Shown: positions 33,196 through 64,000 of the stretch, in pieces
Position numbering within the stretch: the first letter of the stretch is position 1
Layout of the letters: every line of letters begins with the position of its first letter
NCBI GenBank assembly: GCA_021613535.1
Contig: CP075492.1
Location: 14,643,205-14,707,204 of the forward strand
DNA from: Adineta vaga
Lineage: Eukaryota > Animalia > Rotifera
Direction of reading: 5' to 3'
DNA: 64,000 nucleotides
Notes under the pieces: model-generated
Database searches by the model: none
Told to the model about the DNA's origin: nothing
The model's input: only the letters and a program-made list of their open reading frames with translations
Made by a program: the position numbers and the translations under genes

Positions 33196-34128
33196 TTATC
33201 CATTAAGTTCACCGGTTAAAATCCATCTAGTTCCTTCTTCATCTAATTCTTCTCTTGCTCGCTGTAGATATATCTCACTGTCTTCATCTGTTAATATTCC
33301 TTTCCAACGATCATTCGTTCCTTGACAAAAAAATGACTTAGCGCCACCTAAAAACTGTTCTTTTTCTACCATTTTATCTGCATTTGTTTTCATATAATTA
33401 AATGAACAATGTTCTAAAATATCATTCCATCGTAAAGGATCAATATCAATATTAAGAAATGTTGCAATTCGTTTGATTTCATTTGGTAAATCTTTTTTTA
33501 ATTGATAATAATGAACTAAAAGTATATTTGGTAAATGACGCATATTCCACCAAGATTTTATATATGTGAAAAATGATGTTTCCGATTGAGCAACAATATT
33601 TGATTCAAAAAGTTCATTGACAGAGTTCGGTTTGACAACACCTTCGGAAGTACCATTTATACGATGATTATAAATACTACATGCAACATCACGTCCGTCA
33701 CGAGCAACAAAAATATATTTGGCTTTCGATGAGAAGAGAAGTGCATCAAATGGTAAATGACTTTTAATAAATCGTCGATGAGTTTGTTGTTCTAAAATTT
33801 CGAGAACTTTCTCATTCGAACCATATTTGTCTTTATTGAAACGAAAATCAAGCCATGGTGAAACATCCTTTACATTGATAGACTCACTGCCATTGAATAT
33901 TAATTGACCAACGATTTGTTGCATCCATGTTGTACCACATTTTGGAAATGTGTCGATAATAATATCATTATCACGATATTGAAAATGATTCCATAGTTTG
34001 GAATCAAACCAAAAATTTTCAAGTTCGATTTTTTTCCTTGGATATAAAGTGTAGATGTCAGACATTGTTCTCTTGTTAACGAAATGAAAAAGAATAGTTG
34101 TTGTTTTAAAGATTTCAAAAGGTAACAT
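33196..34128 (-). CDS. Cytosolic sulfotransferase (SULT family), single exon
   Basis: It has the PAPS-binding 5'-PSB motif TFPKCGTTWMQQIV, the 3'-PB region RDGRDVACS, and SULT-like C-terminal conservation. The ATG is at 34128; an alternative start (MSD) lies 21 codons in. Confidence 0.85.
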   Translation of the reverse strand: MLPFEIFKTTTILFHFVNKRTMSDIYTLYPRKKIELENFWFDSKLWNHFQYRDNDIIIDTFPKCGTTWMQQIVGQLIFNGSESINVKDVSPWLDFRFNKDKYGSNEKVLEILEQQTHRRFIKSHLPFDALLFSSKAKYIFVARDGRDVACSIYNHRINGTSEGVVKPNSVNELFESNIVAQSETSFFTYIKSWWNMRHLPNILLVHYYQLKKDLPNEIKRIATFLNIDIDPLRWNDILEHCSFNYMKTNADKMVEKEQFLGGAKSFFCQGTNDRWKGILTDEDSEIYLQRAREELDEEGTRWILTGELNG

Positions 34129-36388: not shown

Positions 36389-36826
36389 TGAACAATAGTA
36401 CAACTGGAAATCCTCGTACTTGAATGACGGCTAATAAGAATGAACTTTCTTCTTGTAGAACGCTTGATTGCAAAGCAGTTCACACGTAAGTTTCAATAGA
36501 ACATGAAACAAATCAAACAGTGCTGTGTGTATCTATTTAAATAAAGAGAGAATACATCTTTGAATATTTATCGAGTTCGTATACTTGTATTGATAAACAA
36601 CCTATTCATCACATTTTACCTGCATATTTGATTGACAGAATAAATCATATTCGTCGTTTTATGAATAGATATCAATTCATTATCACAATGAAGCTTTCTT
36701 TCTTTTTCTACATACGCCATCCAAACATTCTATCTACTGAAATAAGTATAAAGAGACGAAGCACTCAATAATTACCAAGATTAAAGAGTAAACGATTGCA
36801 TTTTCAAATTGTATATTGCAACAGAC

Positions 36827-37945
36827 ATGATGATTTCTTCGTTTCTTGTCGTCTTCTTCTTCTTATTGAATCAATGTAGTTCATATCCGCAATTTGCTTT
36901 AAAGTTACAACCCGATGCATTACATCCTTTTCAAGAACCAGGCCCATTTGATATTCGTGGTCCATGTCCAGGTTTAAATACAGCTGCCAATCATGGTTAT
37001 ATTAGTCGTAATGGTATCACAACATTTGCAGAATTAGTTCAAATGCAGCAAGAGTTATATAATGTTGGTCTTGATTTAGCTCTTCTTTTAGCTACTATTG
37101 GTGTTGCTCTCGATGGTGATATCATTACAGGTAAATTATCGATTGGAAAAGAATCAACAGCTGTTCCAGGACTTCTACGTACACCAGGTGGATTAAATGC
37201 ACATAATAAATTTGAAGGTGATACTTCATTGACACGAAATGATTATTACTTAGCTAATGGAGATAATTTCAAATTTAACGGAACTTTATACGGAATGATG
37301 TTTGCTGAAGCACAAAATAATGGTGGCTTATATAATTGGAAAACAATGGCTGACTATCGTTATAAACGTTATCAACAATCATTAGCAGAAAATGGACAGT
37401 TTCTTTTTCCTCCCCAAGCTATTTTACTTTATGGAGCTGCAACATTTCTTTATGAGTTATTTCCAAATGGAACAGATAAATTACCTACAGAAACGGTGAT
37501 TTCGTCTTTTTTTGGTGCAAAACAAACAGAAAATGGAAAATGGGAAGCAGTATCGGAAAAAATTCCTTCAAATTGGTATAGAAGAGAAACACCATTTACT
37601 TTAGTTGATATTGCTATTCAAGTATTAAAACTGTATTTAGAACATATAGCTTTATTTGGAGGTAATACTGGTCGACCGAATTCATTTATTCTTGATCCTT
37701 TCCAATTAACATTGGATAAACAAAATATTAATGGAATTTTGTGTCTTCTATATCAAACAGTTTTATCTGTTGTACCATCACAAGTAGAAACACTGATTAC
37801 TTCACCTGTAGCTATACTCAATTTTTTAATAGCAAAGTTAGATCCAATATTTGGTGTACAATTTGGATGTCCATCGACTAGTTTTGATCAAGCAGTACCT
37901 ACACCATTAGAAAATATTGTCAAAAAAACAATTCTTCGTCGTTAA
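36827..37945 (+). CDS. Heme-thiolate peroxidase / unspecific peroxygenase (chloroperoxidase-like, fungal type), secreted, single exon
   Basis: A signal peptide is followed by the diagnostic PCP motif, RGPCPGLNTAANHGYISRNG (Cys codon 36965-36967), with acidic residues downstream (EHD region). It is intronless, and the first ATG is at 36827. Confidence 0.85.
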   Translation: MMISSFLVVFFFLLNQCSSYPQFALKLQPDALHPFQEPGPFDIRGPCPGLNTAANHGYISRNGITTFAELVQMQQELYNVGLDLALLLATIGVALDGDIITGKLSIGKESTAVPGLLRTPGGLNAHNKFEGDTSLTRNDYYLANGDNFKFNGTLYGMMFAEAQNNGGLYNWKTMADYRYKRYQQSLAENGQFLFPPQAILLYGAATFLYELFPNGTDKLPTETVISSFFGAKQTENGKWEAVSEKIPSNWYRRETPFTLVDIAIQVLKLYLEHIALFGGNTGRPNSFILDPFQLTLDKQNINGILCLLYQTVLSVVPSQVETLITSPVAILNFLIAKLDPIFGVQFGCPSTSFDQAVPTPLENIVKKTILRR

Positions 37946-42225: not shown

Positions 42226-45200
42226 ATGGCTTTAGATACAGAACAAAATAAGAATTCAATCGCAGATTTGAATAGTACTACTAGCGAAAAAGAAATGACG
42301 ATGCTTGAGACTACGTATGTTTTACTTTCTTATAATTAATTTCACTTATAATTTGTACGACAAACTTTTCATAGAAATTTTGATGATAGATTAGGAACGA
42401 AATTCACCCTCGTAGCTATTTTAACATCCTGTGTATTCTGTGGCATTGCCATGTTTATTGGTATTCTCGTCATTTGTCTAACTACTTCCGAAAAACCAAG
42501 TAATTCATCTTTTTTTCAACTCCTTTTCTGGACATTTAGTAATAATATATTTACTTCTTTAGTACCAAAATGTACTTTAAATTTTGCTCCAACAATGACG
42601 AATCCAATTGAATACAATTATCGTCCACGATCTGTTGCCGTCGGTGATTTCAATCAGGATAATATATTGGATCTTGCTGTTGCTAATTCAGCTGTTGACA
42701 CTATTGTTATTTTCCTTCGACATGAAAATGGTAGTATAGAAAGTCCAATCACTGTTTCAGATGAATCTAATTCTATTCCATATATGCTCGCGGTTAATGA
42801 CTTGAATAACGACAATCGATTAGATATTGCAGTAGCAAACTATGGTACACATAGTATAGGTATTTTCTTCGGACTTGGAAACGGATCCTTTGAGAATTTT
42901 ACAATACTTTCTACGGGTACATCACGTCCTATTTCAATTCTTATAAATGATTTCAATAACGATACATTACTGGATATTGTTACTGTTAATTACGGTACCG
43001 ATAGTATAAACATCTATTTTGGGTACGGAAATGGTACCTTCTCATCACCTGTCACATACTGGCTAGGTTACGATTCTTTGCCATATGCAGTTGCAGCAGA
43101 AGATTTTAATAATGACACACAAATCGATTTAGTTATTGCTAATCATGGTACTAATAGTATCGTTATAATCTTTGGAGATATGAACGGCAATTTCATTAAA
43201 AGAACAACAATTTCTACAGGCTTGAATTCGCATCCCTATTCGATTGCAGTTAGCGATTTAGATAATAACAATTTGTTGGATATTGTCGTTGCTAATTATG
43301 GTACGAACAGTATAGGTATATTTCTTAACTATGGAAATGGATTCTTTTCAAAACAAAATACATATTCATTGGGTACTGCTTCACCATGTTGCATTAGTAT
43401 TGGTGATTTGAATAATGATCATCAAATGGATATTATTGTTACTAATCAAGGTGTTGATAATGTTGCTGTTTTTATTGGCTATGGTAATGGTACTTTTACA
43501 GATCCAAAAATGTATTCAACTGGTTCATTATCTACAATCTCACTTGCTACAGGTCATTTTAATAGTGATAATCGATTAGATATTGTAATCGTTAATAATG
43601 ATACGAATAGTATAAATATTCTATTTGGTTATTATGATGCGTTTCCAATTCAGCAGAAGTTTTCAGCGGGTCCTTCATCGTATTCAATAGATGTGGGTGA
43701 TTTTGATAACAACAATGAACTAGATTTTGTGACTAGTGATCAATTTGATGGAACGATACGCGTCTTCTTAGGACAAGGTGATGGTTCTTTTATACAGAAA
43801 ATCACTAAACTATTCAACTATTATCTGTTTTCTTTGTCTGTTGGTCATTTTAATAACGATGGAAGATTGGATATTGTCGTCACTGATTCTTTCGATAATC
43901 AAGTAACGATCCTTCTTGGACTTGGTGATGGATATTTTGAAGAGCCAAAGAAATATTCCGTTGGTAATGCTCCGTTCTTTCTAACTGTCAGTGATTTAAA
44001 TAAGGATACATATATGGATATAATTATCGCTAATGTGAATAGCAATGATATAACTGTACTTTACGGCTATGGCAATGGTTCTTTCAGAAATGACACCAGA
44101 TATAAAATGGGATCAGTACCGCAATCGGTAGTTGTTAATGATTTCAATAATGATACTCATCTAGATTTAGTCATTGTTAATGGTGGTAACGAAAGTGTGA
44201 GCATTCTACTTGGTTATAGCAACGGTACTTTTTCTGAAGAAACACGATACTCTGTTGGTTCTAATCCGTATAATGGAGCTGTTGGTGATTTTAACAATGA
44301 TAAACGACTAGATATTGTTGTTTGTAATGCAGGTAGTAACGATATAAGTATCTTACTTGGAAATGGTGATGGTTCTTTTCTGAAACAAATGAATTATGCA
44401 ACTGGTGATAGTCCTCGATCTTTAGCTATTGCTGATGTCAATAACGATGCTCGACAGGATATTATCGTTGTTAATACTGATGGTAATACAGTAGGTATTT
44501 ATCTTGGATATGGTAATGGTTCTTTTGAAAATCCCATGATCTACTTGCCTGGTTCTATGCCGCGATGTGTAGCTGTCGGCGATTTTAATTATGACGGTCG
44601 AATAGATATCGTAGTTGGTAATCTAAACGATAATCTAGTAACAGTATTATTTGGTTACGATCGTGGAGCTCTGGAAAACAGAGTAGCTTTCGCATCGGGT
44701 GAAGCTTCACGTTTACAATATGCTGCTGCGGGTTATTTCAATGATGATACATGGCTTGATCTTATTGTTGCTAATTATGGTACTAATGATATAGGTATTA
44801 TGTTCGGTCATGGAAATGGTACATTTGAACGTCAACTATTAATTCCAACAGGTTTAAACTCTGCTCCCAAATCAATCGCTATTCAAGATTTTAATAATGA
44901 CGGTCAACTAGATATTGCAGTAGCGAATTATGGTACTAATAATTTAGCTATGCTACTTGGTGATGGAAAAGGAATGTTTACAAATCAAGCAAATTATGAC
45001 AATAATATGAAGTATCCTCCAGCAACTATTATTGCTGCTGATTTCAACAATAATAAACGATCTGAAATTGTAGTCACATATGATAATACGGACAATATAG
45101 ATATATTTATTTCGTATGATACAGGAACTTTTATTTACGACAATTCTTATACAGTTGGTGTGCTTCCACAATATGCCGCTATTGGTGATTTTAATAATGA

Positions 45201-46758
45201 TATGCAACCCGATATTGTTGTTACTAATATGTGGGATGGTACGATCAGTATACTTCTCGGTTACAAAAACGGTACTTTTGCGAAACAAACTATATATTCA
45301 AGTGATTGGTATCCAATTTTTGTCGTTATAAATGATATCAATCAGGATACTATATTAGATATTATCGTTGTTAGTCGAGTTAAGGATACGGTAAATATTT
45401 TTCTCGGCAATGGAAACGGTACTTTTAGAAATCCAATTAAATATTCAACTGGTAGTGTACCATACTACATTGATGTTGGAGATTTCAATAACGATACATA
45501 TATAGACATTGTTACCAGCAATGCAAATAGTAATGATATGAGTATCTTATTAAATTATGGTAATGGTTCATTCAAAGATCAAATCAAATACACAACTGGT
45601 TCTCATCCTCAATCTATAATTGTCAGTGACATTAATAATGATCGACAACTCGATATCATTGTTGTCAATGAATTTGATAATGATCTCAGCATTTTTCTCG
45701 GTCATGGTAATGGATCTTTTCGAGAACAAATTCGATATTCAACTGGTACTAATCCAGTCTCACTTGTTATTGGTGATGTAAATAATGATACAAAATTAGA
45801 TATTGTTGTTTCTAATAGTGTTACTCATGATATAAGTGTTCTTATTGGATATGGTAATGGATCTTTTCAAAATCAAACAAGATATTCAACTGGTTCTCGT
45901 CCAGGATCATTAAGTATTGGTGATTTCAATAATGATACATTCCTCGATATTATCGTCACTCATTCAATTGCTAATAGTATAAGTGTTTTTATCGGATATG
46001 GTAATGGCATTTTTGCATATCGAATTACATATTCAACGAATGCAGGTCCGAATTCTGTTGTTTTTGCAGATTTTAATAACGATCATCGAATAGATATTGC
46101 TATTGTTTGTAGTGGTTCATCTAAAATTGACGTACTCTTTGGAGATATCAGTCAGTCATTTGTAAAAAAGACAACATTGATTAATGATAATGGATCTCGA
46201 CCGAGATCACTAGTTGCAGGTGATTTTAATCATGACAATCAACTAGATATTGCAGTTGCAAATTCAGGTACTAATAATGTGGGTATCTTTTGGGGTCATG
46301 GAGATATTTCATTTACAAATCAATATATCATTTCAAGTAATTATTCTCCATGGTCTATAACTGTTGGTCATTTGAATAATGACACTCTATTAGATCTTGT
46401 CGTTGCCAATTATCATAACGATAGTATTGGTATATTTTTTGCATCTACAAATAACTCCTTTTCTACACAATACATATTTATAACGGGTTCGAAATCGAAA
46501 CCATATGCAACTGTTGTTGCGGATTTTAATAATGATAATAGACAAGACATTATTGTCGCCAATTATGGCAGTAATGATGTAGGTATTTTTCTTGGTGATG
46601 GTAGTGGTTCATTTGCAAGTATAATGATTATTCCCGTTGGTTACGGAACTCTTCCGTTTTCTATCATCGTTGGTTATTTTGATAATGATCCTAAATTGGA
46701 TTTTGCTGTTATCAATGAAGGCACTGATAATCTAAGAATTTTCTTACAAACATGTTAG
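42226..46758 (+). CDS. Giant FG-GAP/VCBS-repeat beta-propeller protein, predicted type II membrane protein (~1.46k aa), 2 exons
   Basis: Exons are join(42226..42314,42375..46758), with a GTATGT donor and a 60 nt intron. It has a short N-terminal cytoplasmic segment, a TM (FTLVAILTSCVFCGIAMFIGILVI), and about 28-29 tandem repeats of roughly 48 aa (DFNNDxxLDIVVANYGTNSIGILLGYGNGTF...Y..G..P), consistent with four 7-bladed propellers. Confidence 0.75.
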
Positions 46759-48432: not shown

Positions 48433-50003
48433 TTAGTGATGTAAAAGAATACTAATGCTATTCGAATAGAAATTTGCAACAATAATGTCTAGTTTATTGT
48501 CATTATTCACATCAGTTAATGTTATTGCAACAGGACCATTACCAACTGAGTAAATATATTGAGAAGAAAAACTGCCATTGCCAAGATTGAAAAGTACACC
48601 AACATTATTTGAACCATAGTTTGCAACAACAATGTCCAGTGTATAATCGTCATTCAGATCAGCTAACGCTACTGCGATTGGACCACTACTAACCGAATAG
48701 GTTCTTGAGTATTGAAATGAACCGCTGCCTATGTTCAATAATATTCCAATAGTATTCGAACCATAGTTTGCAACAATAATATCAGATTTATTATCACCAT
48801 CTACATCAGTTACTATAACTGCTCGTGGATTGTTTCCAACTGAATACATAGTCGAAGGATAAAATGTACCGTTGCCTTTGTTAAGAAGAATACCGATATT
48901 GTTTGAATAATAATTTGCAACAATAATATCGGGTTTATTATCATTATTAACGTCGCTTGTTGTGATTGAGATTGGATTGAGAAAAACTGGATATGAAGTT
49001 TCAGTAGAAAATGTCGCATTACCCATGTTCAGAAGAACGCAAACTGTGTTCGAATTGTAATTTGCTACAATGATATCGAGTTTGTTGTCACCATTCACAT
49101 CAGTTACTGTAACTGATCTTGGATAGGATACAATTGTATAAATGATCTGAGAAGAAAACGTGCCATTACCGGTGTTAAGAAGAATACAAATATTGTTTGG
49201 AACTGGACTTGCGATGACAATATCGACTTTATCATCACCGTTCATGTCGCCTACGACAGCTGTCATTGGATTAGTACTAGTTAAGTAGGTAATTTGATTC
49301 CGAAACGAACCATCACCTAAATTAGTAAGAACACCAATGTTATTGGAACCGTAATTAGCGACAATAATATCGGATTTGTTATGATTGTTTAAATCGATTA
49401 CTGCGACTGAATACGGTTCATAACCAACTTGATAAGACACTTGAGGGAGAAACATATCACTATTGTTATACACTAAAGAAATATCAGGAAAAACAAGTAA
49501 TATTCTTCTGTATTTCGAAACTTGTTGGTATGAACATAACGTGCAAGACTTACCAGTTGCTATCGTCGTTGCTATTGATGTTGACGAAGTTGACATGAAT
49601 TGATCTGTATTAGAGAAGTAATAGTAACAATAAACAACGTCGCTCGACACAAACAAGAGAGAAATAGATAGCTAATCGTTGCGATTATTTTCAGTAAAAA
49701 CTTACTTGATACTATTGATATTGATGATTGATTACTAAAGATATATGTGGCGTCGACATGAAATTCGATGACAATTGAATGATTCTTCAAAGAAAACAAT
49801 TGACATGTTTTATTCATTGAAAAATAATTTAATGCAAATATGAATTTATTTGATGCTCTAGCCATTTGACATATACATTCCTCTTTTGTTAGATTAACAA
49901 ATGACATATTTATATAATCGACCATTATATTATTCTCTATTTTACCGATAGATATCGATTGACTAGCAGAAAATAACGATAGAAGTAATAATATCCAAAA
50001 CAT
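48433..50003 (-). CDS. Secreted single-propeller FG-GAP/VCBS-repeat protein with N-terminal Cys-containing domain, 3 exons
   Basis: Exons are complement(join(48433..49472,49554..49604,49706..50003)), with GTAAGT donors and introns of 81 and 101 nt. It has the signal peptide MFWILLLLSLFSASQS, a roughly 80 aa domain with 4 Cys, a S/T linker, and 7 FG-GAP-like blades (DxNxDxKxDIIVANYGSNxIGIL). Confidence 0.7.
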
Positions 50004-51724: not shown

Positions 51725-52888
51725 ATGATGCAAACAGAGAATGTGTTTATTATTGCTGGAGCAGGCATTGGAGGTTTAGCAACTGCTTTAGCATTGCAAC
51801 AGAATGGATTTTCGTATGAAATTTATGAACGTGACATAGATTTTAATTCTCGTCGACAAGGTTATAGTTTAACTATTCAAAAGAATGGATTTGCAGCATT
51901 GAAAGAACTTGGTTTAGGTGATTGTGTACGAGAGATGGGTGCAGATTCTGTAATCGCAGGAACAGCTACATACAACAATTTGGGTGAAGTGATCTTTTCT
52001 AAATCTAAACGAAATAGGGATCGATATAATTTCAATAATTTTGCAGTACCACGACAATCTCTTCGTACATGTCTAATGAATGAATTAAAACCAAATGTTA
52101 TTCATTGGAATAAAGAAATTATTCGATATGAATCGTTACAAAATAATTCTCATCAAATTCGAGTTATCTTCTCGGATAATACATCCGTTGTTGGTCGTGC
52201 ATTGATTGGCTGCGATGGAGTTCGTAGTACAATTCGTAAACAAATGTTAGGTGATGATTTGAATTATCTTGGTGTATGGGCGATTAATGGTATTTCATCT
52301 CATCAACAGAATCCACTTCTTGTCAATAAAACTGTTCAGATGCTTGATGGAAAATCTCGTTTATTTATTAAACCATATTCTCTTCATAAATCTATGTGGC
52401 AATTGACTTTTCAAGTTTCGAAAGATGATCAAACTTACAATCAAAATGATTTAGAAGATTTATTAAATAAAGCAAGACATACTACGAAAGATTGGTATGA
52501 ATCAATTACAAAATTAATTCATGACACGTCAGTTTCAGATATTCGTGCTGGTCCAGTTTTTGATCGAGATCCATTGGAAATTATTCGCAAAGACGTCGAA
52601 TGTGTGACAATGTTAGGTGATGCTGTACATCCTATGAGTCCTTTTAAAGGACAAGGAGCGAATCAGGCATTGACGGATGCAGTTAATTTAGTAAAATTTA
52701 TAATGAAATATCAAGAAGAGAATGATGGCGTCGAAAAAGCTTTTCATGATTTTGAAAATGAAATGCTCATACGTTCAAAACGTTCTGTTTTACAATCAAG
52801 ATCAGCGGTAAAATTTCTTCATACTAACAATGCTCTTCTAAACACAAATATGTCTCAATTTATCAGTGGTAAACTTGTATTCGAATAA
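51725..52888 (+). CDS. FAD-dependent aromatic-ring monooxygenase (salicylate hydroxylase-like), single exon
   Basis: It has an N-terminal GxGxxG FAD fold (FIIAGAGIGGLATALAL) and the C-terminal FAD motif GDAVHPMSPFKGQGANQALTDAVNL. ATG at 51725, TAA stop. Confidence 0.85.
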   Translation: MMQTENVFIIAGAGIGGLATALALQQNGFSYEIYERDIDFNSRRQGYSLTIQKNGFAALKELGLGDCVREMGADSVIAGTATYNNLGEVIFSKSKRNRDRYNFNNFAVPRQSLRTCLMNELKPNVIHWNKEIIRYESLQNNSHQIRVIFSDNTSVVGRALIGCDGVRSTIRKQMLGDDLNYLGVWAINGISSHQQNPLLVNKTVQMLDGKSRLFIKPYSLHKSMWQLTFQVSKDDQTYNQNDLEDLLNKARHTTKDWYESITKLIHDTSVSDIRAGPVFDRDPLEIIRKDVECVTMLGDAVHPMSPFKGQGANQALTDAVNLVKFIMKYQEENDGVEKAFHDFENEMLIRSKRSVLQSRSAVKFLHTNNALLNTNMSQFISGKLVFE

Positions 52889-55732: not shown

Positions 55733-56991
55733 TCATTGATTTGTGGTAGCGACTGATTCACTGATTATGTTTTTGCTTCTCTCACGTGCATTAGTAACGA
55801 TGAGATCGATAACGTTGCTGTTGAGTGCTACATTAGCAAGAATAGCAATAGGGTTGACACTGTGTGTTATATCAGTCACGGTAGCTTGTGCGTTGACCGT
55901 GTTAGTTTTATTTTGTTCATTCGCCGGAGTAACAATAGATTCGATTGCATTACCACCCAGTATCACATTAGCAGCGGTAATAATAGGATCAACCATACTA
56001 TTATTAGCTGGTAGAGTAGTAGTATTATTTGTACATCTTGCACGTGCATTAGCAATGACTGATTCAATTGCATTACTACTAAGTGTTACATTAGCAGCAG
56101 TATCGATAGAACTGATTGTTGTTGTAGTCAGATCAGGTATTCTTTTCAAAGAAGAAAAAAAAACGTTGAGAAAAATATAAATGAATGTCAAAGAGTTATT
56201 ACCCTTTGACTGATCCTTGTGATTGAATTTGAGTATTTGTTGCTGCTTGTGCATGAGAAGTAATGATAGTTGTCGTTGTTGATTCCAATAAATGTTGAGT
56301 TTCTTGTTGATTTATTTCCAGAATTTGATCAGTAAGATTATCAATATTTGTTTTATTCTGTAATTGACTTTCAATTAATGCATTCACTTTATCTGTATTA
56401 GCTTGATTATTTAAAATATCGATTTGTTTTTTTGCTTCATTTAAAATCGTTTGTTGTTTAGTTTGTAGATCATGTTCTAAATCTGCTAATGTTTTAGCTT
56501 TAACAGCATCTAATGTTTGAATAACATTTTTTAATTGATTTTTATATTCATTATCAATAATTAAATGGCGTCGATTAGCCATAGATAGCAATTCTTCCTG
56601 TTGATGTTGAGTATTTGTAAGAACATCTGCAATTGATTTTTGAACCTATATTTACAATTGAATTAACAGAGAAAAATATATAAGACAAAATTACTAGTTC
56701 ATTAATTTCTGCCACACGTGCTCGAGAATATTCATTTACTTGTGCATATGTTGTACCTAATTGTAGGAGTAAATTTTCAATGTTTAATTTTGTATTGATT
56801 GTTGCATTTGCTTGAGTTTCTGATGATATAACAGATTGTACTTGAACATTATCAGCTGCAGCCGATGTATGAAGATGTTCACTGGCAGTTGTACTCTGTT
56901 CTGTAACAGTTTGATTTTTGTCTGTAGTAGAATTTTGTTCGTCGGATTGTGCTGAAAAGGTGCCAAATAATGCATTAATAATCGACGACAT
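55733..56991 (-). CDS. Gln/Asn/Thr-rich coiled-coil protein with three C-terminal ~40-aa repeats, 3 exons
   Basis: Exons are complement(join(55733..56141,56203..56645,56695..56991)), with GTAATT and GTAATA donors and introns of 49 and 61 nt. There is a long amphipathic helical region (LDAVKAKTLADLEHDLQTKQQTILNEAKKQIDILNNQ...). The C-terminus repeats ANVxLxxNAIESVIxNAR three times. Confidence 0.6.
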
Positions 56992-57609
56992 TATATTTTC
57001 TAATTAATAATTGAAAACAGAAAAATATTGGATCTAAAATGAATTTATATCTAAATTGTTAGATTGAGAAAAAAAAATATTCATAACATGATATAGGTTA
57101 TAGAAATTCTCCTTTTTTCCATCTCTTTACATATTTTGTGCGCAATATGTTTATTGTTATTATGATGCTCTTAGGCACATGCTTTGTTTTTTCTTCTCTA
57201 TTATAGAACATAGCTCTATATGCAATGTACCAAACGATAGAACTAGAAAGAAAAAAAAATGCTTATATGAATTATTTCCACTGATATTACTCAAATGTGG
57301 ACAGAAAAACAAGAAAATATTATCTATGTCGAGGAAATGTTGATGCACTGATTGATTGCTTCGTAATATGATATAACCGATAAAGGTTAAGAGATGATGA
57401 TGTTATTGCACAGTAAAACTTGATCAATGAAATTCGATGTTCTCTATATACAGTACAATACTCTGATTCTATTGACAATTTTTTTTAAGAACAAATATTC
57501 TTTCGTTTTACATATTTTTATTATAAAATGAGCGGTGTGTGAAAAACATTTTCATTTATAAGAACTCCGATCATTAAAATGCACTGTATAGTTAGTACGA
57601 AGATGTAAT

Positions 57610-60020
57610 CTATTTCGAGTCTTGTTCTAGACGATTGATATTTGCGAGTTGTTCATCAATTTCCTTGGCTTGTTTCTCCCAGTTCATATCTTCATAGAGT
57701 TTTTTGGCTGCTGTCAAGTTTATACGAGCTGCTTCGAAATCACGTAAGCCAAGTTGAAGATCAGCTAGCTGTATGTGACTTTGAATCACAATGTTCTTTT
57801 TATCTTCGATCTCTTGCAAGTCGTGAAATGGAAGTATCTCATTGCTCTGTACCGTTGCATGATGTTTCAAAAGTCGATACTTCAATGCTGATGAAAGATC
57901 TTTGAGATTGTCTTTGTAGATGTTGGATATACGTTGATAAATGCGAGACAAATCTTCATGATTGTTCTGAGCGACGTAGATCTTACAGATTTCTTTGTAG
58001 TTTATCAGAGCCTCATCAAATATCTCCATCTCTTCCTGAAGCTCAGCAATATTCTTGTAGCATTTGCCCAATTGTCTATCGATAGGTGAGCAAAATTTTA
58101 AAAGAGCTTGAAGTCGAAGTTGTTCGTAGTGTAGAGCAGATTTTTTGTCTTCCTTTTTATCATTTATCTCTTCCTTTTCTAAGTAAACCGTCGATAAGAT
58201 CTGATATAACACTGCTTTTTGTCTTTCATTATCTGGTAACTGATTCAGAGTGGTTTTACAGATTAATATTGCAGCATCATATTGTTCCTGAGCCGACTTG
58301 TCGTCCTCGAAATGAAAGTAATGCAGGCGACCTATTTTCAGATGAAGATTGGCAATTTCGAAACCATTGTTCTCAGGATATCTTTGCCAGATTGTAAGCG
58401 CTTGTTTGTAGTATGTCAATGCTGCTTTGTAATTTTCCCGACCATATCCCTCTTGATATCCACCCAATGCTCTGTATCTCTCGGCCTCCAGTTGTTCTCC
58501 CTCCGAAGTAAATAATTCATTGAGTTCATCGAAAATAGTGTTAATCTCCTCTTCTGGAGCATCTTTGCACACTTTTCCAGCAATGATACTAACACACTCT
58601 TTCAGACTAATTTTTCTGTTCTCGAACGGCAGAATATAATCATCTTCCAATGTCAGCATCACCTTGATAATCTTTTCATCTTCACTGTAACTACTGCTCC
58701 GAAGACGAAGAAATGTTCCCATCATGAGAAGTATTTCTTTCTCGTTGGAGAATTCACTCAAATGAGAAATATCTCCGAAAGGTTTAGAGTTGTATCTGGC
58801 GTTTAGATTAATTTCTAGCAGCACCCGGACGTAACCTTCCATCACTGAGGATATAGGCGGAAGAAAACTGAGCGATAGACGCCGATCAAGCGATGTCGAC
58901 AGAAAACTGGTTAACCTCACCATATAGGCAGACTTTAATGTTTCGACTTCATCCTCAGACATGATCTGTCCTCGAAACACTTGCACTTGTACGTTGTCTA
59001 CGTTGGTGGTTTTGAATGTTTCGTGTTCCTTTTTTAATTGGAGAAATAAATCTTTAATGTAGTAGCCGAATGCAAACATTACTCTGACGTTGTACTGTCG
59101 ATTAGCTTTGTTGATCAAGCGAAAAAAGAAGGTATCCCGTGTATACCACCAAACAGCCTTATCAGGAGTATACTCACGCTCGAACTCATCGATAACACGC
59201 AGTTCTCCAACTTTTCCATCGTAATAATTTCGTAGTTCAGTAGTGAGACGCTGGTGGCATACTTCTCTTGGATAAGGTAAGTGGCAGAGAGCATCCATAA
59301 ATATTACCCACCATGAAGCAGAACCAGATTCTGTTGTTCTATCTTGTTTGTCGAAGTTACCAAATACACCATCCTTCTCTTTTTCCAGATATCTCTTTAC
59401 GTCACTATCGACTGCCTGAAGTAAGGATTTGTGATTCGTGTACACTTTCTTAACCTGCAGTAAAAAAGTGTCTTGCGTCGCAGAAAAAAACTAAGTTTAA
59501 ATCTTACCTTTGTGTACGAACTCGGCCAGCTTTGAAGATGTTCACTATTCTGAGAGTAGACAAAAATTGAACGAATGTTTTGCAAGTGATGAATTTCTGG
59601 AATTAACTGCTTGCCGATGTTGTCTGAACAGACTAGAAAACACACGACATATTGTGACTCTTGTAGATAATGTTTACAGGAGTCTTGATTGTCAAAGAAC
59701 TTGGTGTAGTCGACAATTTCACGTAATTTGGAGATGGTCAGGTCTCCATTTAAGCCATCGTGAACATGGTTATCGCACCAGACTAACTGATGTGACTCAA
59801 GATTGAGTCGTTCACGGTCGAAAAGGCGAGATCGTATAGGGGAATTTCCTTGAATTGTATTATCGGCCGATATCATGGAAGATTGTGATGATCCAACGAA
59901 TGTGTTCATATTTTTTGTAGCCGTTAAATTTCGTCTTCTCAATAGTTTTAACTTTAGTTTGTCTCCATGGCTCGAGAAACATAACATTACTGTTCTGTGT
60001 ATGTGCTGCTTTTTTTTCAT
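57610..60020 (-). CDS. Multidomain protein: unknown alpha/beta N-domain + R-S-ExE mono-ADP-ribosyltransferase (toxin-like ART) + TPR repeat array, 2 exons
   Basis: Exons are complement(join(57610..59454,59508..60020)), with a GTAAGA donor and a 53 nt intron. The ART motifs in order are VQVFRGQ (Arg codon 58972-58974), FLSTSLD (58891-58899), and NEKEILLMMG (ExE at 58735-58743). They are followed by about 350 aa of TPR-like helical repeats (e.g. YKAALTYYKQALTIW, LGKCYKNIAELQ). The alternative start is MNTFVG at 59909. Confidence 0.75.
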
Positions 60021-60822: not shown

Positions 60823-63800
60823 CTAAATATAACTAAAGCAATGATTTCTCCTACAGCTTTGTCGCCATTTTTTCATTGACTTGACAAATTTTTCTTTGTA
60901 CAGTGTTGATGGCAGAACGTACATGATAAAAATCAAAGTCGTAGGAATAAATGCCGTAAAATAACTCGAAACATATAACCAGGAGCTTTGAGATGCTTTT
61001 ACACATCGAAACAATGATGAAATAATAATAAATGGCAATGTGAAGATGACCAATAGCAGAGGACCAATAAGTAACGGTTTGTGTTGATAAACTTGCTCTC
61101 TAAGATGCTGACGGCGACCTTTATATTTTCGAGCTGCTGCTTTTCGACGAACAATTGTATAAATAATGAATAGAGATGAGAAAATATTGATAAAAAATGG
61201 TCCAAGCACATGAAGAAATGAAATTGCTGTTGTATAGATATATAAATTTGATGAATAAAGAGTAACACACCAGACACGATCTTCTTCAGTATCATCAAAT
61301 AAATCACGAGAAAAGCATTCATAAATATTTGAACCGATAAGTAATAATACTAAAACAATCACAATACATCGAGCAGCTTTGATACTATGTGTTTTATTGA
61401 AAGATATTCCTTTCGAAGTATTTATGGCACGTTCAATTGATACACAAGCATTCAACCAATTATTCATCCATGAACAAAATTTCAGTAAAGGTTCAATCGA
61501 CAAACATCCAAAACGAAGAACAGCACGATTTGTTTCTAAATTCATTTGAGAAAGTAAAACAAACCAAAATTTCATCATCAACACGGTAATAGTAATCAGT
61601 GAAGTGATTGACAACATTAAAAGATAAATGCCACATCCAACTACACGCGTATCTCGCCGAGAAAATGTAATTAATGAAAGAATACTATTGACTAAGCCAA
61701 TAACAAATAATATCATGGTAAAAAACATACTTAACTTAACCATTTCAGATTGATTACTTAGACGAATATTTGATCGAATTTCATATCGAAAGAGATCATC
61801 AAGTGTTAATCCTATTCCTTTCGCATAAAATTGACATTGATTACCAAAGAAACAATCAATACAATTACATATAGTTGTAAGTGGACATATTGGATGATCT
61901 TGTAAACATTGTCCATCATTGAGACAATGAACATTTTCTTTGCATTGAAAATCATGTTGATGATCAAATGCAAAACAATTAGCATGATGTTCTGTTGTAC
62001 ATAAACACATATACGATTCATCAAAGAAACATTTTAAATGAGGATTGTTTTGACATAAAGTATGATAATATTTAATTCGTTGAATTCTGAGTAATTTGAT
62101 TTGTTTAGAATCGAGAAGTTCATTAACAGACGGACATCGTCGAGTGGAATCGATTGTTGTTGAGATGTTAGATGTTTCCGATTGTTGAAGCACAGTCAAA
62201 TAATAGTTATTATTCGTTAGAATAAACACCATTTGAAATACTTGTTGGAGATAAAATGTCACATTTCTCTGCAGTGTAGTTATTTTTCTTAGTATTGTTT
62301 CGTGTGCTATTGGTGGCTCCCAGGGAATGTTTGAATAGATAAACGCTATCAGATATGATGATATTTTTCTATCATTGAGAGTGATATGTAACCGTGACGT
62401 TGGAGATTCACATCTTTCTCCTCGAAATTCTTCGGGACATAAACATTCATAACTAGTATCAACCATTCGTTCATCAGTAACAACGCACACACCATTATTT
62501 TCACAATAATTTATTGGACATGAATGTTTGAGCAAACAACGATTACCGAACTTTTCAAGAGGACAAATACAGATTGATCGATTATGTGCACGGTCAATAC
62601 AAATTGAATCAGATGAACAATCATCGCAATCAATTGAAATATGACACTGAGCACCAGTCCAACCTTTCTGACATTGACAAAAGAACTTTTCTTCATTTAT
62701 ATACTTCACACAGATACCATGTTGACATTGAAGAGAACACAAACCAGAATAAGCAATATGATTCGATCCCAAAGTTAATAGAACAGCAAGTCGGTTCACT
62801 GGCAGAAAATTGAAAGGAACTTTGAAATACCAACTAGCAAGATATTCCACTGAAACCTTATCATAAACATCAATGTGAATACTGTAGTTTTTTGAAAGAT
62901 GTTTTGGTCTTGTTGAATACGGAAGATATTTATCGAATGGTTGACCACATGTTATTTTAGCAATATAGATGATTTGTTCATACGATTGTATTTGTTGTTG
63001 ATCATTATCATCATCAATTAGTTTAATGAAAATAGCAAAAGTATGATATCGAATGATAGCTGATAATATTAATGTAAGACTCACTCGTTGATTCTGATAT
63101 TGACATTGATTTCCATAATAATTTGGTGGACATAGACAAATTGTAGTGTCATTTTCATTTCCTAACCAAAGACGCATGGGTGAACCACGTGTGCATTGCC
63201 ATGATGGAGTATAAACGTGTGAAAATTTTTGTGGTGCATCATCAGCAGAAGTGATGATATTATTTTCGACTAATGGACAGGTTTCAGATGATTCTAATGT
63301 GAATGGAACACGAGACATGGTACCAAAACGACAAAGAATATCTTGAACTTCAGTGAGATTATAATCAGTCCATTCTTCACATACGTCTGTATAATATATT
63401 TCATTATGTAAATCACATAGTATAAAAGGTTCGATACATCTTGCGTCATTCAAACAACGAAAACTATATGAAATTCCACTAAAGAAATCTGCTACTCGAC
63501 ATAATTGTGGTTCATCTATTCCGCCAAGACAATCAACAATGCCATTTCTCACTTCATGTGCTGGTATACATATCATTGTATAATTATAGGGTGACGTACA
63601 TTCAAGAAAACGATGAGAACAGTTCGATGGTCGACACTTTTCTTCATCTTTACCATTTTCACAATCCCAAAATCCATCACATCTTGTATAAATATTATTG
63701 CAAGGCCAATATTCACAATCACTTTCATCTGTATAATTTTGTCCATTGATTATTTCAGGTGAAGTATCAATCGTTTTATCACATATTTGATTGAAAACGG

Positions 63801-64000
63801 TATTATCGATAGTTTTCACCTCACTTTCTTCAAATTCACAACCATGTAGTTGAAGTATTGACGATCGACATCGACTTTCATTTGGACATGTAAAACGATT
63901 AGGCTCATTAAGTGAACAACTTAATTTAAAATCTTCTTCATCATCATGCAAGTAACAATCAATGATGTTGTCAGCAATTCGACGTGTTGAAATATATTTG
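60823..64000 (-). CDS. 7TM receptor with large EGF-like/LDL-receptor class A ectodomain; 5'-partial (continues beyond window)
   Basis: The ORF is open to the window edge at 64000. It has an LDLa module (CEYWPCNNIYTRCDGFWDCENGKDEEKC) and multiple EGF-like Cys patterns (CLCPPNYYGNQCQ, CQCQKGWTGAQCH, CLCPEEFRGERCE, CNCIDCFFGNQCQ). The C-terminus has 7 TM helices with SIERAI (DRY-like) after TM3. No introns were detected. Confidence 0.75.
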   Translation of the reverse strand, partial: KYISTRRIADNIIDCYLHDDEEDFKLSCSLNEPNRFTCPNESRCRSSILQLHGCEFEESEVKTIDNTVFNQICDKTIDTSPEIINGQNYTDESDCEYWPCNNIYTRCDGFWDCENGKDEEKCRPSNCSHRFLECTSPYNYTMICIPAHEVRNGIVDCLGGIDEPQLCRVADFFSGISYSFRCLNDARCIEPFILCDLHNEIYYTDVCEEWTDYNLTEVQDILCRFGTMSRVPFTLESSETCPLVENNIITSADDAPQKFSHVYTPSWQCTRGSPMRLWLGNENDTTICLCPPNYYGNQCQYQNQRVSLTLILSAIIRYHTFAIFIKLIDDDNDQQQIQSYEQIIYIAKITCGQPFDKYLPYSTRPKHLSKNYSIHIDVYDKVSVEYLASWYFKVPFNFLPVNRLAVLLTLGSNHIAYSGLCSLQCQHGICVKYINEEKFFCQCQKGWTGAQCHISIDCDDCSSDSICIDRAHNRSICICPLEKFGNRCLLKHSCPINYCENNGVCVVTDERMVDTSYECLCPEEFRGERCESPTSRLHITLNDRKISSYLIAFIYSNIPWEPPIAHETILRKITTLQRNVTFYLQQVFQMVFILTNNNYYLTVLQQSETSNISTTIDSTRRCPSVNELLDSKQIKLLRIQRIKYYHTLCQNNPHLKCFFDESYMCLCTTEHHANCFAFDHQHDFQCKENVHCLNDGQCLQDHPICPLTTICNCIDCFFGNQCQFYAKGIGLTLDDLFRYEIRSNIRLSNQSEMVKLSMFFTMILFVIGLVNSILSLITFSRRDTRVVGCGIYLLMLSITSLITITVLMMKFWFVLLSQMNLETNRAVLRFGCLSIEPLLKFCSWMNNWLNACVSIERAINTSKGISFNKTHSIKAARCIVIVLVLLLIGSNIYECFSRDLFDDTEEDRVWCVTLYSSNLYIYTTAISFLHVLGPFFINIFSSLFIIYTIVRRKAAARKYKGRRQHLREQVYQHKPLLIGPLLLVIFTLPFIIISSLFRCVKASQSSWLYVSSYFTAFIPTTLIFIMYVLPSTLYKEKFVKSMKKWRQSCRRNHCFSYI

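Follow-up and report, generated by a model that had tools for sequence, protein, structure and literature searches.

What does a gene that appears to fuse a toxin-type, arginine-specific ADP-ribosyltransferase (ART) domain to an array of tetratricopeptide repeats (TPRs) represent on the chromosome of an animal? This question was raised by a preliminary description of a DNA stretch of 64,000 nucleotides from the bdelloid rotifer Adineta vaga (assembly GCA_021613535.1, contig CP075492.1, positions 14,643,205 to 14,707,204 of the forward strand), the whole of which is called the window here. Positions 57610-60020 of the window hold one minus-strand gene with two exons and a spliced product of 785 amino acids (aa). 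The product is almost certainly an intact ART-domain protein of the R-S-E clade, and the gene, as judged from its sequence, is real, spliced and host-encoded. We found the gene to be an ordinary member of a very large, automatically annotated and apparently unstudied family of bdelloid rotifers, and the order of its parts, a pseudo-receiver followed by the ART domain and the TPRs, to be a new architecture of an already known kind of enzyme.

ADP-ribosyltransferase Domain

The preliminary description had reported a complete R-S-ExE signature, in the right order and with plausible spacing. This was borne out in the 785-aa product, the numbering of which is used here unless stated otherwise: the distance from R to S is 25 aa and that from S to E is 52 aa, and the signature is conserved in relatives. 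The domain and its catalytic codons are the following, where Vis denotes an enzyme of Vibrio splendidus.

58612..59325, minus strand: R-S-ExE mono-ADP-ribosyltransferase domain, residues 215-452; an N-terminal helical subdomain (WWYT...LINKANR) and then the beta-sandwich core
58972..58974, minus strand: codon of the catalytic Arg332 (FRG, residues 331-333, strand 1); R in 173 of 179 relatives; aligned to YRG of Vis
58891..58899, minus strand: codons of Ser357-Thr358-Ser359 (STS, strand 2); S357 in 178 of 179 relatives; aligned to STS of Vis
58735..58743, minus strand: codons of Glu409-Lys410-Glu411 (ExE, end of the ARTT loop LSEFSNEKEILL); E409 in 176 and E411 in 178 of 179 relatives; aligned to LSEYSKEAEVLF of Vis

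Of 177 relatives that were aligned with the domain profile, 170 have an intact quartet of R332, S357, E409 and E411; the catalytic motifs are therefore not a product of chance. All 29 full-length homologs of a further alignment have S357 and E411, and at least 90% of them have R332, G333, Q334, T358 and E409. W274-Y275-T276 is also invariant in these homologs, with N286 and R290 kept in at least 90%, and we take these residues to be the helical-subdomain motif Y...N..LR typical of C3, VIP2 and ecto-ART enzymes.

A profile constructed from 23 homologous domains of the family matched Vis, which is named "NAD(+)--arginine ADP-ribosyltransferase", with an E value of 3.6e-11; the YRG, STS and ExE motifs were all aligned, and the ARTT loops of the two proteins are nearly identical in this alignment. 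Weaker matches of the same profile were VsdC, SpvB, XopAI, HopU1 and ExoT. What counts against the assignment is the score of the window sequence taken singly, which reached 16.2 bits at full length and 18.3 bits as an isolated domain for PF03496 (ADPrib_exo_Tox; gathering score 23.4), and 19.6 bits as an isolated domain for PF01129 (ART; gathering score 22.3). A phmmer search of the window protein against the Protein Data Bank (PDB) found nothing relevant. The Pfam comparison proposed in the preliminary description thus gave only a marginal result for the window sequence but was passed by much of its family, as 18 of 23 individual members match PF03496 (best E 8.8e-10) and 14 of 23 match PF01129. 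Because the single sequence lies below the Pfam gathering scores, the ART assignment rests on the family profile and on the fold.

The AlphaFold2 model of residues 215-452 is confident (predicted local distance difference test, pLDDT, 91.6; predicted template modeling score, pTM, 0.87) and comprises seven N-terminal helices and, after these, a beta core. In the numbering of the isolated domain, R is placed on the strand 113-123, STS on the strand 142-145 and ExE at the start of the strand 197-200; in terms of topology, the first strand carries R, the second carries STS, and ExE lies where the loop passes into strand 5. A Foldseek search of PDB with this model gave a probability of 1.00 for Vis, C3 exoenzymes, HopU1, Certhrax, ExoS/T, XopAI and Plx2a, and the anticipated fold match to ART toxins was therefore obtained. 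The folds closest to the predicted structure are all those of arginine-specific transferases. The family-profile match, the order R / S-T-S / E-x-E and the ART fold, which characterize the R-S-E clade, were all found.

TPR Array, Predicted Localization, and Selection

The proposed fusion of the ART domain with a TPR array on one chain is supported by profile, fold and hhalign evidence.

57613..58560, minus strand: degenerate kinesin-light-chain (KLC)-type TPR array, residues ~470-785; TPR_12 at 2.2e-10 and hhalign probability 99.5%

The Pfam model TPR_12 was passed by residues 510-567 only (41 bits, cut-off 30.1). A sub-branch profile of residues 470-785 was aligned to the canonical KLC-type TPR arrays of distant paralogs with the above hhalign probability and an E value of 5e-23, and three alternative alignments with shifted register had probabilities of 97-99%, which shows that the whole of residues 470-785 forms a repeat array. 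The expected length of more than 300 aa of C-terminal TPR was thereby confirmed, though the repeats are degenerate, and the window protein belongs to a sub-branch of the family in which the TPRs are degenerate and the N-terminal tail is longer.

Neither a signal peptide nor a membrane segment was found in the window protein, the maximum 19-residue Kyte-Doolittle mean being 1.14, at residue 366 inside the ART core. Because these segments are lacking, the protein is predicted to be soluble and cytosolic.

For the estimation of selective constraint, the gene was compared with its closest relative, a 72% identical protein encoded on a metagenome contig (L001). The Nei-Gojobori method gave dN of 0.165 and dS of 0.83, with 80% aa identity in the ART domain. 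The ratio of nonsynonymous to synonymous differences (pN/pS) was 0.21 for the ART domain, 0.35 for the N-terminal domain, 0.35 for the TPR array and 0.30 overall. These values indicate that the gene is kept by purifying selection and that the catalytic domain is its most constrained part.

N-terminal CheY-like Domain

Residues 1-75 are of low complexity and are followed by a domain that the preliminary description could not assign. A CheY/receiver-like fold has now been found for it.

59398..59795, minus strand: CheY/receiver-like (beta-alpha)5 domain, residues ~76-190; spans the intron; pseudo-receiver

In the structure model, residues ~76-190 are predicted as five beta-alpha units (pLDDT 85), which is the (beta-alpha)5 CheY fold of receiver domains. 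The identity between the N-terminal domain and receiver domains is ~10%, and the scan of the window protein with Pfam gave no match to PF00072 (Response_reg). While receivers carry a phospho-acceptor Asp after strand 3, the family mostly has Gly or Ser there (consensus FLVxSGxxG); the Thr and Lys that receivers have in strands 4 and 5 are not conserved either, and only the Asp after strand 1 is common, as judged by mapping the sequence onto predicted secondary structure and not by a residue-level structural alignment. The residues that are invariant or nearly so in the family are limited to a Trp in strand 1, a Leu, a Cys and the Lys preceding strand 5. Because the phospho-acceptor set is not conserved, the domain is a pseudo-receiver, as far as the predicted fold allows the comparison. 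A true two-component receiver was rejected for the same reason and for the missing PF00072 match.

Gene Structure and Start Codon

The exons and associated signals of the gene are listed below.

60020..59508, minus strand: exon 1, 513 nucleotides (nt), in frame; codons 1-171, low-complexity N-terminus and most of the CheY-like domain
59507..59455, minus strand: intron, 53 nt, GT..AG, phase 0, between K171 and V172; GTAAGATTTAAACTTAGTTTTTTTCTGCGACGCAAGACACTTTTTTACTGCAG
59454..57610 including the stop codon, minus strand: exon 2; codons 172-785, rest of the CheY-like domain, then linker, ART domain and TPR array
57517..57522, minus strand: possible polyadenylation signal AATAAA, ~90 nt past the stop codon, read from the sequence

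The spliced product is 100% identical over its full length to the GenBank entry "hypothetical protein I4U23_015597 [Adineta vaga]", which is located on a contig of 20,354,754 bp, and the gene model of the preliminary description is the same as the deposited one. The G+C content of the window is 31.5%. The 53-nt GT-AG intron noticed in the preliminary description (GTAAGA at its 5' side and TGCAG at its 3' side) is supported by three independent observations. Firstly, unspliced exon 1 meets a stop at 59397, and the frame of exon 2 is closed upstream. Secondly, the splice junction restores the motif Y-x-K|V/I-K-x-V, which is conserved in the alignment of 29 homologs; K171, the final codon of exon 1, is nearly invariant, being kept in at least 90% of them. 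Thirdly, L001 has a GT..AG intron of 50 nt at the identical codon boundary. This intron and that of the window gene have diverged in sequence, whereas the adjoining 60 nt of exon share 75-77% identity. The identity of the product to I4U23_015597 and the conserved intron agree with the description of the gene as intron-containing and host-encoded, and bacterial contamination was ruled out by the intron, the 20-Mb A. vaga contig and the rotifer-only relatives.

The start codon annotated at 60020 may lie 11 codons upstream of the real one. Since L001 begins with MSSFSSHGDK, which is aligned to M12 (MLCFSSHGDK) of the window protein and is preceded by CA-rich non-coding sequence, translation may actually begin with the ATG at 59987, giving a protein of 774 aa.

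Family in Bdelloid Rotifers

A full-length search found 59 homologs of the window protein. With the ART-domain profile, 774 clusters (90% identity) were detected. When sequences clustered at 50% identity were searched exhaustively with a hidden Markov model (HMM) of the N-terminal domain, 4,078 representatives had E <= 1e-3, and 2,540 of these had E <= 1e-10; a word-indexed search with the profile of this domain yielded no more than 12 matches, all of them short metagenome fragments of exon 1. The 142 best new matches of the N-terminal domain include 66 proteins of at least 450 aa, all of which have the ART domain. The N-terminal domain and the ART domain form a fixed dyad, which is usually followed by TPRs.

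Among the members inspected, those with a named source are all from Adineta, Rotaria or Didymodactylos, which belong to Bdelloidea, and the unnamed ones derive from environmental assemblies. The same architecture of N-terminal domain, ART and TPR, which the preliminary description had proposed to look for in other genomes, is thus present in these three bdelloid genera. One metagenome-only member of 1179 aa (P0326) was considered as a bacterial source and rejected, as its contig carries fragments of cadherin and NHL genes and looks eukaryotic. A tblastn search found no second copy of the family within the window.

Many members are named in UniRef as "NAD(P)(+)--arginine ADP-ribosyltransferase", "Mono(ADP-ribosyl)transferase" or "ADP ribosyltransferase domain-containing protein". 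These automatically annotated bdelloid ARTs, including some named "Tetratricopeptide repeat protein", are of the same family, architecture and motifs as the window protein and share 25-45% full-length identity with it. Unlike them, the window protein is labeled "hypothetical protein", and it differs in its degenerate TPRs and longer N-terminal tail. The view that the fusion is not a standard annotated metazoan family was therefore overstated, because there are hundreds to thousands of bdelloid paralogs, many of them with UniRef names. In the literature, we found no paper describing rotifer ART-TPR proteins or experiments on any member.

The ART core is also combined with other modules. An A. 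vaga paralog (P0012), on a contig equal in length (20.35 Mb) to that of I4U23_015597, has the N-terminal domain, the ART domain, a second N-terminal domain and a C-terminal potato inhibitor I domain; P0056 joins the ART core to an NHL beta-propeller, and P0057 joins ART to one TPR, Jacalin and DM9 lectin domains, each of these two in a single open reading frame (ORF).

Two side observations concern the composition of other members. Some proteins, such as P0193, P0195, P0207 and P0242, contain two to three N-terminal domains by local HMM and up to five matched stretches in the exhaustive search, and these may be fused gene models of tandem paralogs. Several full-length paralogs (P0005, P0006, P0007, P0017 and P0026) start with MGC(K/N), which resembles an N-myristoylation/palmitoylation motif and is not present in the window protein; because of these starts, part of the family may be membrane-anchored.

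Proposed Function and Alternative Explanations

In the mechanism that we propose, the ART domain would bind NAD+ and modify target proteins by transferring ADP-ribose to their arginine side chains. The TPR array would be the specificity module, acting through recruitment of the substrate or through binding of a ligand that sets the enzyme free, and the role of the pseudo-receiver would probably be regulatory or oligomerizing. The family would be deployed in conflict or stress responses, as sensor-effectors resembling those of innate immunity, and not in core housekeeping.

These parts are of unequal strength. We consider it probable, by a modest degree, that the window protein is an active protein-arginine transferase, because the ExE form, the Vis-like ARTT loop and the closest folds, all of them arginine-specific, point to arginine transfer. 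The scale of the family and its shuffled binding modules suggest a role in defense or conflict. Since the family is large, is apparently restricted to bdelloids, and reuses the ART core with NHL, Jacalin plus DM9, and protease inhibitor modules, we tentatively assign it to conflict or immunity, at somewhat less than an even chance. A more specific form of this idea is a bdelloid-specific, NTPase-independent immune or conflict repertoire, in which variable arrays sense non-self or danger and release a cytosolic arginine-ART (or NADase) effector. This form is possible but doubtful; if true, it would be an animal intracellular arginine-ART system without counterpart in model organisms.

Several points weigh against this interpretation. 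ExE enzymes are not all protein-arginine transferases, and some R-S-E enzymes modify DNA or small molecules or mainly hydrolyze NAD+; for this reason, we infer the target class instead of reading it directly from the motif. The Pfam scan of the window protein found no NACHT or NB-ARC domain. PADLOC gave no match for the window protein and only generic TPR for the tested paralogs, and NCBIfam likewise gave generic TPR. In the one pair compared, that with L001, the pN/pS of 0.35 for the TPR array and the N-terminal domain is a sign of constraint and not of diversifying selection. Lastly, the analogy to immune systems draws solely on family size, lineage restriction and architecture shuffling.

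An unlikely alternative is that of an endogenous regulator, whose TPR array recruits particular host proteins for ADP-ribosylation in a tankyrase-like manner, for example in desiccation, stress or proteostasis, with no non-self role. The purifying selection on all domains, the TPR array included, is what would be expected from it, and TPR_12/KLC-type repeats are classic cargo- and peptide-binding modules. In the A. vaga spaceflight transcriptome, the Gene Ontology (GO) term "protein ADP-ribosylation" was reported as enriched among down-regulated genes, which the authors read as PARP and DNA repair (PMC12220480). This signal could also reflect the ART-TPR family and, given the family size, may stem largely from its mono-ARTs. 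However, thousands of divergent paralogs, named from bdelloids only, are hard to square with conserved endogenous targets, and the joining of this one ART core to lectin, NHL or protease-inhibitor modules is a pattern more typical of conflict systems.

Quite improbable is an NAD+-consuming effector of death or dormancy. By analogy to TIR/SARM1-type proteins and some bacterial ART-like toxins, an ART activated by the TPR array or the pseudo-receiver would mainly act as an NAD+ glycohydrolase and deplete NAD+, not modify specific proteins. NADase activity can generally be measured in R-S-E ARTs, hydrolysis would be served equally well by the intact residues for NAD binding and catalysis, and a huge family seen in one lineage only fits the logic of an abortive response. 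Nevertheless, strong conservation is seen in the ARTT loop, with both the first Glu of ExE and an aromatic residue four positions upstream being kept. In characterized relatives, the acceptor is recognized by this loop, and pure hydrolysis would not require such conservation. The closest folds are those of transferases.

Another alternative, which we regard as very improbable, keeps the transfer reaction and changes the acceptor: the enzyme would modify DNA or RNA, as do pierisin, ScARP and DarT-like proteins, or a metabolite, and not protein arginine. An intact triad is also found in several R-S-E enzymes that act on guanine in DNA or on small molecules. Vis itself has been crystallized with agmatine, a free guanidino compound (PDB 4xzk).

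The least likely explanation, a catalytically dead scaffold or decaying pseudogene copy of the expanded family, is scarcely credible: the sub-threshold Pfam scores, the degenerate TPRs and deviations from the consensus such as LINKANR for LLNxALR and FRG for YRG would agree with decay, but the frame is open over 785 codons with a conserved intron, R332, S357, E409 and E411 are all intact, the ART domain has a pN/pS of 0.21 and 80% identity to L001, and the structure model is confident.

Significance

To our knowledge, the R-S-E arginine ARTs of animals are essentially a handful of extracellular ecto-enzymes. The present locus encodes an intact enzyme of the R-S-E kind that is predicted to be cytosolic and is joined to a TPR array and a CheY-like domain. 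Bdelloids are asexual and desiccation-tolerant and are known for uptake of foreign genes and for unusual defense biology. Should the proteins prove active, bdelloids would possess a large, apparently unstudied intracellular system of arginine ADP-ribosylation. In rotifer transcriptomics, the ART-TPR family probably also skews enrichment analyses by GO and Pfam, since terms for "protein ADP-ribosylation" are often taken to mean PARP and DNA repair.

Neighboring Genes in the Window

The preliminary description had placed the gene beside an EGF/LDLa G protein-coupled receptor and a coiled-coil repeat protein, in what looked like an accessory region. In the first of these neighbors, an ORF of 1042 aa at 60823-63951 on the minus strand, only EGF-type models of Pfam were found (PF00008 at 3e-07). 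Neither LDLa nor seven-transmembrane (7TM) families of Pfam were detected in this ORF even at E <= 1, although its hydrophobic C-terminal half may still be a divergent 7TM domain. The downstream ORFs at 55733-56991 on the minus strand, earlier called a coiled-coil repeat protein, are rich in Q, N and T; no Pfam family was above the threshold in them, and DUF7716 was found only below it.

Other ORFs of the window with recognizable domains are the following.

42451-46758, plus strand: uninterrupted ORF of 1435 aa with ~23 FG-GAP_3 repeats
48433-49656, minus strand: second FG-GAP ORF, 407 aa, adjoining the former
36809-37945, plus strand: Peroxidase_2, fungal-type haem-thiolate peroxidase, E 2.6e-52
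51725-52888, plus strand: FAD_binding_3 monooxygenase ORF
33196-34128, minus strand: sulfotransferase ORF

The FG-GAP ORFs, which are long and intronless and have bacterial-looking repeats, may have been acquired horizontally, as is common in bdelloids. The peroxidase, monooxygenase and sulfotransferase form a cluster of enzymes of the xenobiotic or secondary-metabolism type, some of them possibly of non-metazoan origin, and the impression of an accessory region fits such enzyme ORFs.

Comparison with Known Systems

The automatic names of the rotifer proteins lead to a comparison with vertebrate ecto-ARTs (ART1-5; rat ART2.2, PDB 1gxy; PF01129), because UniRef carries the EC 2.4.2.31 name over from that family, the Pfam model of which is matched by 14 of 23 rotifer members as described above. 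Ecto-ARTs are secreted or GPI (glycosylphosphatidylinositol)-anchored, disulfide-stabilized, single-domain extracellular enzymes. In contrast, the window protein has no hydrophobic N- or C-terminal segment, has two extra domains of cytosolic type and belongs to a family of thousands. A vertebrate-type ecto-ART was rejected, since secretion and GPI signals are lacking and TPR and CheY-like domains are present. A binary actin toxin of the iota, C2 or VIP2 type was also rejected, since there is a single ART domain with a CheY-like domain at the N-terminus, and no tandem ART folds.

The rotifer family shares with the NB-ARC/NACHT-TPR STAND receptors of fungi, invertebrates and bacteria the combination of a KLC-type TPR_12/TPR_10 array with a toxin-type effector, as well as the expansion in one lineage and the recombination of the effector with alternative binding modules. 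STAND receptors have a P-loop NTPase switch, whereas the window protein has none and carries the pseudo-receiver at its N-terminus instead; a receptor of the NLR/STAND class was rejected because the Pfam scan found no NACHT/NB-ARC NTPase. In tankyrases, solenoid clusters of ankyrin repeats recruit substrates to a PARP domain on the same chain, a logic analogous to that proposed here for TPR and ART. Tankyrases are of the H-Y-E clade, perform poly-ADP-ribosylation with another type of repeat and are conserved single-copy regulators, unlike the expanded rotifer family.

The comparison set of bacterial arginine-specific R-S-E toxins consisted of Vis from Vibrio splendidus, HopU1 from Pseudomonas syringae, XopAI from Xanthomonas, the T6SS (type VI secretion system) PAAR-linked ART of PDB 6drh and C3 exoenzymes. 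They have the same order of R / S-T-S / E-x-E as the window protein and share with it the N-terminal helical subdomain with Y...N..(L)R, at an identity of 16-19%. These toxins are secreted or injected and are single-domain or linked to delivery domains, whereas the window protein is encoded on an animal chromosome by a gene with a spliceosomal intron, has no secretion signal, and carries flanks that the toxins do not have, a CheY-like domain and ~300 aa of TPR. By analogy, the closest counterpart of the window protein in its working would be a bacterial arginine-ART effector incorporated into a repeat-array protein of the host.

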